This document shows positions 1-28,748 of a stretch of DNA of 64,000 nt, one piece after another. The stretch spans positions 16,926,001 to 16,990,000 of the forward strand of contig CM022669.1 in assembly GCA_012295275.1 (NCBI GenBank). The letters run 5' to 3'. The position numbers and the translations under genes are program-made. The number at the start of each line of letters is the position of its first letter. Within the stretch, counting starts at the first letter, position 1. The notes beneath the pieces were generated by a model. It was not told the origin of the DNA. It saw only the letters and a program-made list of their open reading frames with translations, and ran no database searches. This DNA comes from Chrysomallon squamiferum. Lineage: Eukaryota > Animalia > Mollusca.

Positions 1-2371
1 TGTACAGTTTTAGCTAGGAGGTAAATAAATGAGAAAAGTTACATATATAATATATGCACAAACACTGAAGTGTAAATGTGTGTGTGTTTTCGTTGGAAGA
101 AGACATATTCACTGAAAATCAGGACGTTTCTTACCAGCGTACAAAATCGGTCTCTGACATAAACTGATGAGCCTCGATATCTTCGCTTCAGTTGCAGGAT
201 AAAAAAATGAATCGGTTATGTTTGCTTTTTTGCTGTAGTTTTTTTTTTTCTGGGTTTTTTGTTTGTTTGTTGTTGTTTTTTGTGGTTTTTTCTCTTCTTT
301 TTTTTGTTGGTTGTTGTTGTTTTTTTGTATTTTTTTCTTGGATTTTTCGTTTTTAATGACACCCAGCACAAAAACAGTTGGTTACTGTACTACATTAAAC
401 AATTATTTCTATAAATGTGAATGACATCATCGTCTATACAATCTTTCGACAGATGCACTATTCGAATACAATGCTAGATGGTTTAACATTCAATGGTGGA
501 AGAAAAATATGAAGGAGTCTCTGTTATTGTGTCAAACCTGGAAACAACCCAGAACTGCTTGATGCGAAAATCAAAGGTACAAGTAGCATTTAGCTTTACA
601 TCAAACGACCTAACATACCTCTCTTCAAACACCAGGTAACGACTAGGATGTTTTGGTAAGGGTTTTAATTTTGATAACAACTGAAGAGATTACTAAGTAC
701 GTCTAGCATGAAAACTAGGTTCGAACATACAAGCTGTCAACAACCGATGTTGATCCGCTTGACAAACGATACAAGAGAGATCGTCCATAATTGTATCTTC
801 ATTAATTCCTTCTGAATCTCTTGACCTAATCACTCCCTTGCATGAGTTACAGACTTATGTGCAATAACTTTGTTGCATAATACAGCGGATTTAAGAGCGG
901 ATCTGGTCAGATTGTCATTTGAACATTCCGCAACCGGTGAATCATTCCTAATTTTTTTTTAACATATTTGGGCTCGCCAGACAAACCAGCGAATTGCTTC
1001 AGTACGGCAGATTATGACAATTTACTGATGTAACAAATAACAAAAACCTTAGCGAATACTGAGAAGAAACAACGGTTGTTAGCTCTTGAGCTTCGCGTGA
1101 CCACCAAATAACCAAATATCGCCTAAAAATATTAATTTTATTCTGCTCAAATCGAAGGGCCCGATGTAGCTCGGCTTATTCCTGCTGAATCGGACAATTC
1201 TGACCTTCACTGAATAAAGCTCATATCTTAAGACATTTATTCCCTGTAAATATATAACAATAAACACATCTCTATAGCCAGGTGAACTCATTTTCTTTTC
1301 TTTCTTTTCTCTTATTGACACTATCAACGAAAGAATGGTGAAATTTCTTAAACCTGGTTTTTAACAAGGACATTTTTGATATTACATGTGATATTTTGAA
1401 ACATATGTTAATGAAATATTAACTCATATATTAAATCATGCAAGCACACACACACACATGTTAATTATTACTCAGCACAAAACAGATTCAGACATAATCT
1501 TGACTTTAGCAATAAGCGGTTTATTCTGAACATTGACAATCCTGTTTGATGTTCTAACAATGACTCCAGTTTGTGGTCTTTGTAATTTTATCTTATGTCA
1601 GAACTTTCAGTGATATCAACTTTATGTCATGACCTGTAAAGTTCGTGCTCAATCTATTTAATTATTTTTCTTTGTTTTTTCTAGGTATTTTAGCGTAAGA
1701 AAATTACATGACTTTACACGAAAGGGACTATGAAGCTAGTCTCTGAGGGACAAATTGAAACATATGGAAGATATTAAAAGAGAACATTTGTAAATTTAAA
1801 AAAATTATTTGAATTACTTACCACTTAAAGTCCTGTACAATACTGAAAATTTGACCAAATATATTAAATTCCTTTAACAAAATAGCTGTGCTATGAATGA
1901 GATAGGGGAAAAAAGCTTTCACAAAATAAAATAATTTATTTGTATATTCTTTCATGTTAATTAGTTGTTAATTAGAGTATTTAACGATGCGTGAAGCCAA
2001 TGGTAATTTTTAAAATAATCTACTTCAAATATAATTCAGTTAATAAAAACAGTTTTGTCAACATAATAATGTCAGATAAAATCTTGTCTCTAAATATTTT
2101 GTACAAGAAAATCTAAAAGAAAATAAAAGAAATAAATGTAGTAATATTAAAGTTAAACTTAATTATCCATACAATTAGATACGTATTTGCTTGTTATTTA
2201 CAATACATTTGTAATCTTTAAAGTTTCATAGGTAATCACAGAAATGGTGATAGTCCATCGGTATTTATAATACAAATATAGAGTTATAGAGTGTTATACA
2301 CATTAACCTTATATCTAAATACCTGCAAGAAGTGACAAAACTGTTCCATCAAACAAGCTTTTGAAATACAT
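1..2371 (-). CDS. Copy A: hedgehog-related Cys-peptide/Hog gene, 5' part only (exon1 2371-2323, exon2 1842-1822, exon3 starts at 13 and runs off the window)
   Basis: Reverse-complement homology to the 5' halves of copies C/D/E. The 49-nt exon 1 and 21-nt exon 2 have GT-AG sites in the same phases. Translation is MYFKSLFDGTVLSLLA-VLYRTLS-AKTV..., which is signal-peptide-like. Downstream exons are outside the window. Confidence 0.75.
483..680 (-). mobile_element. Degraded non-LTR retrotransposon (I/Nimb-like LINE ORF2) fragment within intron 2 of copy A
   Basis: The peptide SKLKPLPKHPSRYLVFEERYVRSFDVKLNATCTFDFRIKQF...ETPSYF resembles, from memory, the region between RT and RNase H of I-clade LINEs. 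The segment ~110-1080 is absent from the homologous intron of copies C/D/E. Confidence 0.4.
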
Positions 2372-3003
2372 TTCGTCTGTGTTTTCGTTAAAAGGAAATT
2401 GTTGCTACTTGTTTGTAAACGTGATGTGAAACACTATCTGGAAACAACAGACTCGTCAGATTAAAAACCTTTGTTCAACAGTCAGCAAAGTGGTGTACAT
2501 AAATGATCTGTTAATTAACATATTATTAAATGTAAAAAAAAAAAAAAAAAAAAAAAGCATAATTAACCTGCCATACTAAATTTTATGGTGTCGCTTTTAT
2601 GATTATTTTATCTGCTTTTGAAACTTGTAGTCATGAACATTTGCAGCAAATATCATTAATATTTAGCTTTATGTCATAAAAAAAATCTCAGTTTAGATTT
2701 ATGTTGAACAAGTTAATGTATCGGTATGGATAAATATTATGTAATTTGTACCAACTTTTACAAAAATGTTTGTTCACGTCTGGGTTGGTCTTATTCAAGC
2801 ACAACATGCATGTACATGAAAATATTGTACAAGAAGTTTTGCCTGTAAATGATGTTATGTACTTAATTCTAATATGAATAGAATTTAGTGCAATTGTAGT
2901 ATAATAAAATAATGAAAAGAAACACATATTTAAAGTAGATGCTGAATAAATACGTTAGTATGTAAGATAGTAGGTTAGTATGTAAGTAACGTGAGTGAAT
3001 TGA

Positions 3004-27700: not shown

Positions 27701-28748
27701 TATGTGTGTGTGCGTGTGTGTGTATATATATGTATGTATGTAAATAAATGTGTGTATAAATATATGTATGTATATTTATCGAATTTATTTATTTATTTAT
27801 TTATTTACTAACATATTTATGAAGAGCAACGTTCTTTAAAGCGACAAAACAAAAGAACCTTGAATGTAAAGAAATAAGAAACAGAACGCAGAAAGACACC
27901 GAAGTCTCCAAGACAAAAAATGAGTGGAAGAGTGACTGGTTTTAATTACTTTAATTAATTATTACCACTTACAATGGCCGACACCTGTGTCACTATCTTT
28001 CCTAAAAGACATATAAAAGAGTATTTACAAAAATCAGATATAGTGTCTTGTTTTGTTCTAAAGATTAAGGTCACGTTCGATTTGTGAAAGATCTAGAAGG
28101 CAGATACTGTTGGAAACGCAAAATTGGCCTAATTAGTGTTGTTTGTTGCTGAAGTTTATGTTTTATTCATTTTTGTATAGTGATAAGTCCCTTCAAAAAT
28201 GTTTCCGAAATAAATTATCTTCTACTTTTCTTCAGGTTGTTGGTGAGTGATGCTGCGCATCCAAAGCAATATGCTAATATTAAAACTAATTTAATATAAG
28301 ACAACATTTTATTATTATTATTATTATTATTATTATTATTATTATTATTATTATTATTAATTTGTTGTATAAGACAACATTTTGATTTATTATTATTTTT
28401 TTATTTTTTTATTTTTTTTAAATAGTCAGAATAATTATTGTTTTTACATACCTGTATTTCTTAAAGAGACAGTTTGAACTGAATGAAAAAATATAATAAT
28501 ACGTTATTCATAGTTATCTGAGAAACACACGCGCACACACGCACAAAAACACAAACACGTCATAAAAACAATAATCATAATTATCCTGACATTGTTCTAA
28601 GAAAAAGACATTCAATAAAATGCTTCAATGTAATTTTCCCTATTTGTTTGAATATAAAAATGTTTTGTTGGTTGGGGAAAATCAAAAATAATTACTTACA
28701 TTGCAATATTGCTGCAAATAAACAAAATAAGTGTATCCTTGAAAACAT
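24715..28748 (-). CDS. Copy F: divergent secreted 8-Cys peptide/Hog gene, 275 aa; exons 28748-28700, 28478-28452, 28001-27973, 27473-27245, 26478-26307, 25419-25313, 24929-24715
   Basis: 828 nt in frame with the same intron phases and identical exon sizes (49, 172, 107) as C/D. Sequence [88 protein letters not shown]...TFLKR...SADH...[23 protein letters not shown]...[21 protein letters not shown]. Confidence 0.88.

Follow-up and report, generated by a model that had tools for sequence, protein, structure and literature searches.

The original definition of Lophohog is reportedly that of the 2008 review by Burglin. Lophohog is a named group of hedgehog-related (Hh-related) genes (PMC5103448, PMC9695228); PMC5103448 credits Burglin with the name, given for genes of Lottia and Capitella. 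One Hh-related gene, assigned to Lophohog, was reported in the chiton Acanthochitona crinita and 11 such genes in a limpet (PMC5103448), so a gastropod expansion was already known. Hog domains with lineage-specific cysteine-rich cargos were also known (PMC2362128, PMC7919330), and what the Hog domains of Hh-related proteins attach to their cargo has been a long-open question, stated for nematodes (PMC2362128). Here we describe a tandem cluster of predicted Lophohog-type genes in a 64,000-nucleotide stretch of the mollusc Chrysomallon squamiferum (GenBank assembly GCA_012295275.1, contig CM022669.1, positions 16,926,001 to 16,990,000, forward strand), hereafter the window. Self-BLAST and tblastn recovered six related loci, copies A to F, within positions 1-28748, and the repeated blocks spanned 1-28.7 kb in the self-comparison. 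The copies share a hydrophobic leader, a domain with eight cysteines (8-Cys), an S|CF Hint domain and a tail resembling the sterol recognition region (SRR). We read the cluster as a variant within the known Lophohog family. Its apparent novelty lies in Lys46 and Ser143 (Hedgehog numbering) in the window copies and in swapped cargos, including astacin, in the snail Gigantopelta aegis.

The placement of the Hog domain was based on profile searches, pairwise scores and a tree. The exon-4 profile matched 14 proteins among 1.84 billion representatives, including Hog proteins of abalone and G. aegis. Seven of these matches (P0003, P0005, P0006, P0007, P0009, P0012 and P0014) represented other, unrelated types of Hint or chance similarity and were excluded from the counts, as were the short fragments P0001, P0002, P0010 and P0011, the last with its cluster mates P0018 and P0019, none of which extends to position 46. 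An abalone Hog query returned 13 proteins and an alignment search 17, every named match coming from chitons, limpets, abalone or G. aegis. Among them was A. crinita APD15680.1, 'lophotrochozoan hedgehog-related', which we take to be the Lophohog gene of that species because PMC5103448 reports one such gene. For the Hog domain of copy C, scores were 207-271 bits against 13 paralogues of G. aegis, 205-211 against abalone, 168-171 against limpet and 129 against the Acanthochitona Lophohog. Identity of the window Hog domains was 36-41% to the A. crinita protein and 47-61% to the G. aegis paralogues. P0023, the closest relative in G. aegis, was 59-61% identical to the window copies in its Hog domain, which scored 154 bits to Lophohog versus 69 to SHH. 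The chiton-rooted tree of 24 Hog domains, with no row from Hedgehog, Lottia or Capitella, branched in the order chiton, limpet, abalone, and then 13 G. aegis rows with four window copies in one 99/99 clade; within it the four window copies made up a separate group (100/100) with a long stem (branch 0.33). We accordingly classify the window Hog domain as Lophohog-type and nested in the chiton-limpet-abalone series, a placement that points to a neomphaline-like gastropod as the likely source. The chiton-rooted tree was preferred to a midpoint-rooted one that included a long algal-type Hog. The single locus that a metagenome scan yielded among 196 stretches contained stops, lacked a Hog frame and was discarded as due to chance.

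Pfam matched Hint in exons 4, 5 and 7 (7 of 10 pieces, two of which pass the curated cut-off alone) and gave no HH_signal match, and hence no Hedge domain, in the window copies. Single Hint exons searched against the PDB gave chance matches only. The window tail aligned without gaps to the tails of gastropod relatives, which makes it like the SRR or adduct recognition region (ARR), and the tail of P0023 aligned to the first SRR helix of SHH. Late in the Hint domain, gastropod members had a C-x4-C pair that was absent from the two chiton proteins. The earlier note on this DNA had proposed a six-gene cluster, a family expanded locally in which variable 8-Cys peptides are carried on a Hog domain. 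The local expansion was borne out, identity between copies being 24-72% in the cargo versus 77-93% in the Hog. Six related loci were indeed present, but only C, D and F are open, A being cut by the window edge, B a 3' fragment and E stopped. The cysteine formula given in the note matched all four cargos exactly, and its account of Ser before CF, the Hint domain, the SRR-like tail and the missing Hedge domain also held.

Catalytic positions were numbered by aligning P0023 to the Drosophila and human Hedgehog chains 1AT0, 6TYY and 6TD6. The 29 relative records counted include isoforms and are not independent. Cys1 and the block-B His were kept in 4/4 copies (Ser-x-x-His; S-x-D-H), and CF was present. 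At position 46, the general base Asp of Hedgehog, Lys was found in 26 of 28 relative records, His in the other two, and Lys in all four window copies covering the site. Position 143 was Cys in 26/26 relative records and Ser in 5/5 window copies. The Thr69 position was Ser in the window copies, as in many relatives, and the HWY motif of the second SRR helix was absent from the window copies and the aligned mollusc relatives. HWY is required for cholesterolysis (PMC7242414), and D46A in Hedgehog keeps thioester formation, accelerates dithiothreitol (DTT) cleavage and abolishes cholesterol transfer (PMC9163320; PMC13738340). Cholesterol transfer is therefore unlikely across Lophohog as a whole, and still less likely in the window copies, where the D46 and C143 equivalents are both changed. 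The D46H laboratory swap is active in Hedgehog (PMC9163320), and the G. aegis paralogues P0043 and P0044, with His46, are its natural counterpart. An additional Cys lies two residues beyond Hint Cys1 in copies C and D (7407-7418 and 14108-14119). In the searched passages of the open literature we found no report on Lophohog catalytic residues; the original Lophohog alignment or the supplements of PMC5103448 may already show Lys46 or the Cys motif.

The reading that we favour, at a probability of roughly 0.45, is that the three intact copies of the tandem cluster encode secreted precursors whose Lophohog-type Hog is likely to form the Cys1 thioester yet unable to transfer cholesterol, an unlipidated 8-Cys peptide of ~6 kDa being freed by slow hydrolysis or thiolysis. 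The leader would direct the precursor into the endoplasmic reticulum, and the eight cysteines would form four disulfides. An N-S shift would then take place at Ser|Cys1, with no Asp46 restraining it, and the acyl group would move to Ser143, the intein +1 position, or be hydrolysed directly. If the leader is cleaved after residue 23, the products would be an unlipidated four-disulfide peptide of ~6.2-6.6 kDa and a Hog fragment of ~22 kDa. The freed peptide would act extracellularly in recognition, defence or matrix, a role that we infer from its variability only, and not as a Patched ligand as Hedge is. Inteins use Ser+1. In Hedgehog, C143 forms the branched intermediate and is equivalent to the intein +1 residue (PMC12054796), and Ser stands at the 143 site in alveolate, moss and red-algal Hogs (PMC2362128).

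Several observations weigh against the favoured reading. In cells, Hedgehog processing is lost with either C143A or C143D, and DTT-driven cleavage requires C143 as well (PMC12054796); the searched text of that paper makes no mention of C143S. Motif J is altered at three places, from ASCY to SSSH, on the long stem branch, and these changes together with the stem would be just as compatible with a loss of catalysis. Ser takes the place of Gly at position -1. The separation from Hedgehog follows from the bit scores and the shared Lys46, with no true Hedgehog in the tree. Splicing of the copies is a model prediction, and no spliced transcript was seen. For the cargo of C and D the ratio of non-synonymous to synonymous substitution rates (dN/dS) was 1.17, not significantly above 1 (p = 0.8), so relaxed constraint is possible. 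The earlier note took self-cleavage to be intact; the Hog domain retains Cys1 and the block-B His but has lost two residues on which Hedgehog relies, and self-release of the window peptides is uncertain. The same exchange at position 143, in a residue that Hedgehog processing requires (PMC12054796) and all 26 relative records keep, would suit a catalytically dead carrier, in which no cleavage follows the loss of Cys143, the protein remains in one piece, and the Hog fold, through which the variable 8-Cys domain is displayed, helps folding or sorting or, by way of its amphipathic SRR helices, anchors the protein in the membrane. The flanks of the site have changed too, and a structural role would also keep purifying selection. 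Set against this are the retention of Cys1 and the block-B His in 4/4 copies and the nature of Ser, an isosteric nucleophile that occurs at 143 in other Hogs (PMC2362128), and we regard a dead carrier as somewhat unlikely.

A new transfer chemistry would put the weight on Lys46, which might select a non-sterol acceptor or itself attack the acyl group, so that the cargo would end up attached covalently to a lipid, a glycan, another protein or, through a stable Ser143 ester, its own Hog. Lys46 is kept from chitons to vent snails (26/28), which resembles selection for a role and not decay. The relatives also retain SRR-like helices and Cys143, and very different cargos sit on the same Hog. Nevertheless, two G. 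aegis paralogues have His46, so Lys46 is not essential, and the Lys may merely fill space; such chemistry is decidedly unlikely in our judgement. Self-release, the favoured reading, can also be placed beside a more general proposal that we consider quite unlikely, namely that the Lophohog Hog is a non-sterol autoprocessing module, with Lys for the general base and interchangeable cargos in neomphaline vent snails, and that the window subfamily uses a Cys1/Ser143 relay, resembling that of Cys1/Ser+1 inteins, to release diversifying 8-Cys peptides or tether them covalently. If true, the Lophohog module would represent animal Hint chemistry other than cholesterolysis.

The Hog domain is under purifying selection, with dN/dS of 0.29-0.36 among intact copies (p = 2e-3 to 4e-7). 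Between C and D, dN was 0.18 in the cargo versus 0.032 in the Hog (p = 1e-6), and dS was similar (p = 0.56). Between C and E, dS was 0.80 in the cargo versus 0.08 in the Hog (p = 8e-8), and this tenfold difference suggests that the Hog exons have been homogenised by conversion, the 5' halves remaining distinct. The contrast is the pattern expected from conversion if the cluster were a birth-and-death array of decaying, mostly non-functional duplicates, whose Hog exons resemble one another through recent gene conversion; B is truncated, E is interrupted, and there is no RNA evidence for the window copies. Against such decay, C, D and F are open across seven exons with splice phases kept, Hog dN/dS relative to the divergent F copy is 0.31-0.36 (p < 2e-5), and all eight cysteines are invariant among the cargo-bearing copies, so that we hold it to be very unlikely.

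Exactly four Cys cargos were detected in the window by a six-frame scan. The framework was C-x-C-x15-C-x4-C-x-C-x9-CC-x2-C in C and D, with x1 replacing x4 in E and x13 in F; the linker was 7-13 aa long, and Ser preceded CF in all four. In the chiton, limpet and abalone orthologues a motif C-x-C-x-C-x9/10-CC-x-C ends six residues before CF (6/6). The last six cysteines of the window cargo have the layout and position of this 6-Cys motif, and the main departures of their x1 form from the Lophohog motif are a single residue ahead of the final Cys and the length of the loop. In G. aegis, P0023 (XP_041356242.1) and P0043 also had the 8-Cys framework, with the x1 spacing seen in copy E, and two unnamed fragments displayed its last six cysteines. 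On the simplest reading the 8-Cys cargo is probably the Lophohog motif with one added C-x-C, a homology that the profile test left unconfirmed (hhalign score 8.4, equalled by 84/200 column shuffles). The approximately unbiased (AU) test rejected a single Hog clade of 8-Cys carriers (p = 7e-66), and the cargo is therefore either old in the expansion or moved by recombination.

Attempts to assign the cargo elsewhere were negative. No Pfam family scored above its cut-off in the eight cargos scanned, and no nematode domain of Pfam matched them, direct comparison with Wart sequences not being part of this test. The exon-4 profile found 0/595 candidates among longer proteins, the cargo search of the Atlas gave no usable match, and PDB sequences gave 0 matches. 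Profile comparison with an EGF-like module was not significant (12/200 shuffles). Two AlphaFold models of the cargo were too poor to inform (predicted local distance difference test, pLDDT, 56), with a best Foldseek E of 2.2 and a best VIA Z of 2.8. The earlier note recognised no named family in the 8-Cys domain, and its claim to novelty is weakened, as the Hog is that of Lophohog, the framework is shared with G. aegis, and the last six cysteines echo the Lophohog motif. Neither Pfam nor PDB sequences gave a match of the cargo to VWC, defensin or conotoxin-type families, and no fold match came from the models. A VWC origin, suggested by spacing only, was dropped with no Pfam support. Pfam TCR/CXC matched weakly in C and D only (2/8 members; best 18.3 bits, E 0.003), and membership of this zinc cluster was rejected because the match lies below the curated cut-off of 23.5. 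Those weak matches would favour a metal-binding, CXC- or metallothionein-like Cys cluster in place of a four-disulfide peptide, the least probable of all the alternatives; the leader points to the oxidising secretory path, and CXC domains are nuclear.

Two further cargo observations concern relatives. The unnamed fragments P0011 and P0012 consist of Hog-type exons with cargos of 10-11 cysteines and proline-rich linkers, ending at the same intron position, and their cargo appears to be a further undescribed type. In the Lophohog orthologues P0008, P0020, P0021, P0022 and P0037 of abalone and limpet, a dibasic site lies just before the 6-Cys motif and predicts a peptide of ~26 residues cut at both ends, by convertase and by Hog. 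The other G. aegis Hog paralogues carried astacin plus an EGF-like module, an EGF-like module alone, a 4-Cys or 6-Cys cargo, or almost no cargo, 'EGF-like' being a label assigned from Cys spacing. Five of them (P0016, P0025, P0026, P0027 and P0029; XP_041355647, XP_041356556, XP_041355650, XP_041372465 and XP_041378607) are predicted astacin metalloprotease-Hog fusions, most with an EGF-like module, and their Hog is Lophohog-type with Lys46 and Cys143. A search of the open literature found no report on astacin-Hog fusions or on a neomphaline Hog expansion.

The window sequence is AT-rich and animal-type, with microsatellites, and exon models were derived from splice signals. Open seven-exon models were obtained for three of the six copies, C (280 aa), D (279 aa) and F (275 aa), in which intron phases agree and AG acceptors are present; the region ahead of the Hint domain measures 82-85 aa. 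The N-terminus is hydrophobic, with an 11-residue hydropathy of 2.5-3.0, similar to relatives. Microexons of 20-49 nt encode the leader and a few residues only, and exon 4 alone holds all eight cysteines and the first ~29 Hint residues; the N-terminus is therefore split over microexons, as noted earlier, but the 8-Cys domain itself is not. The intron-4 donor is GC in C, D and F, and in E a GC sits 3 nt further. This boundary is supported by five unnamed fragments from the database, in which the reading likewise passes into an intron there. Within the window copy A comprises exons 1, 2 and the start of 3, with no Cys exon and no Hint exon. Copy B begins mid exon 5, after a microsatellite, and is without leader, cargo and Cys1. 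In copy E, whose layout is otherwise the same, exon 2 is degenerate and the Hint domain is stopped in frame at its codon 6; this early stop (20362-20535) would leave a leader and 8-Cys peptide without Hog, like Wart-only genes, if the transcript escaped decay. The features are listed in the table.

Contigs of three RNA runs contained no joint across window exons, which is evidence neither way. In a DNA-like run, one 738-base contig spanned copy C from exon 3 to mid exon 4, with two letters and one gap different, and the summed depth of DNA contigs was ~8 times higher at exon 7 than at exon 1, a ratio that is not a copy number. A 495-base RNA-library contig (run X3) matched 38 bases of exon 7 (9297-9334). 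By eye, its continuation resembles a Lophohog-type paralogue that has diverged and matches none of the window copies, which hints weakly at transcription in the wider family.

Table. Positions of the gene copies, cargos, position-143 codons and neighbouring features in the window
Feature	Positions	Strand	Details
Copy A, 5' part only	1..2371	-	exons 2371-2323, 1842-1822, exon 3 start 13-1; remainder beyond window edge
Copy B, 5'-truncated fragment	3458..4321	+	exon 5 end 3458-3518, exon 6 3741-3847, exon 7 4101-4321
Copy C, open 7-exon	5515..9404	+	5515-5563, 6043-6063, 6780-6802, 7245-7494, 8415-8586, 8808-8914, 9184-9404; Pfam Hint
Copy D, open 7-exon	11613..15858	+	11613-11661, 12110-12130, 12824-12843, 13946-14195, 14884-15055, 15282-15388, 15638-15858
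Copy E, interrupted	18033..22314	+	18033-18078, exon 2 degenerate, 19910-19932, 20362-~20608, 21251-21422, 21654-21760, 22094-22314
Copy F, open 7-exon	24715..28748	-	28748-28700, 28478-28452, 28001-27973, 27473-27245, 26478-26307, 25419-25313, 24929-24715
Copy C 8-Cys cargo + linker	7245..7406	+	54 aa, in exon 4; Hint Cys1 codon from 7407
Copy D 8-Cys cargo + linker	13946..14107	+	
Copy E 8-Cys cargo + linker	20362..20517	+	x1 spacing, as G. aegis P0023/P0043
Copy F 8-Cys cargo + linker	27333..27473	-	32% identical to C
C143-equivalent codon (motif J), copy B	4160	+	Ser
C143-equivalent codon (motif J), copy C	9243..9245	+	Ser
C143-equivalent codon (motif J), copy D	15697	+	Ser
C143-equivalent codon (motif J), copy E	22153	+	Ser
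C143-equivalent codon (motif J), copy F	24870	-	Ser
Multi-PDZ gene	35592-60886	-	neighbours cluster
Inverted-arm element	49333-52207		inside PDZ gene

The neighbouring multi-PDZ gene includes very long low-complexity exons, of 1609 and 792 codons, and PDZ was matched in 4/10 pieces scanned. Inside it, inverted arms of ~630 bases (97% alike overall) flank 1.6 kb; the element is likely a recent DNA transposon, and its two internal open reading frames had no Pfam match.

The window genes and their relatives offer natural Lys46 and Lys46+Ser143 variants, small enough for existing Hedgehog cleavage assays. Such variants bear on whether a Hog can dispense with the general base and use an intein-like Ser as its nucleophile. 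In the clade, cargos that include proteases are swapped on a module derived from Hedgehog, all within a single animal lineage. Should the window copies be inactive, the cluster would be a more ordinary expansion of small secreted Cys-rich proteins.

Among known systems, polymorphic toxins with PT-HINT (PF07591) likewise place a conserved Hint module beside a variable cargo, a parallel drawn in the earlier note together with a toxin role. In polymorphic toxins the toxin lies C-terminal to Hint and is accompanied by an immunity gene. The window cargo is N-terminal, the tail is SRR-like and the exons gave no PT-HINT match; the parallel is thus an analogy only, and nothing in the evidence supports toxicity. 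The nematode Warthog, Groundhog and Quahog families have likewise expanded, within their own lineage, secreted N-domains that are rich in Cys and sit on Hog; Wart, too, is a domain of eight cysteines, and some members have lost Hog (PMC7919330), and copy E is in effect also without Hog. The window Hog groups with mollusc Lophohog, so the expansion is independent of that in nematodes. Hedgehog itself (Hh/SHH; Hint PF01079; PDB 1AT0) shares the Hint fold motifs, Cys1, the block-B His and an SRR-like two-helix tail, and the window copies differ from it in the absent Hedge domain and HWY motif and in the changes D46 to Lys, T69 to Ser, C143 to Ser and Gly-1 to Ser. G. aegis P0023 and P0043, whose RefSeq names ('indian/desert hedgehog-like') are automatic only, have the same architecture and 8-Cys framework; unlike the window copies they keep Cys143, P0043 has His46, and they share no Hog clade with them. 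From Lophohog the window copies are set apart by a cargo of eight and not six cysteines, highly variable and multi-copy, by a linker of 7-13 residues versus 6, by Ser for Cys143 and by the lack of an evident dibasic propeptide site, present in abalone and limpet. In line with their nested position in the tree and their Hog identity to it, they share with Lophohog the leader, a short Cys-rich domain directly before CF and Hog, Lys46, and the cargo end pattern C-x-C-x9/10-CC-x1/2-C.

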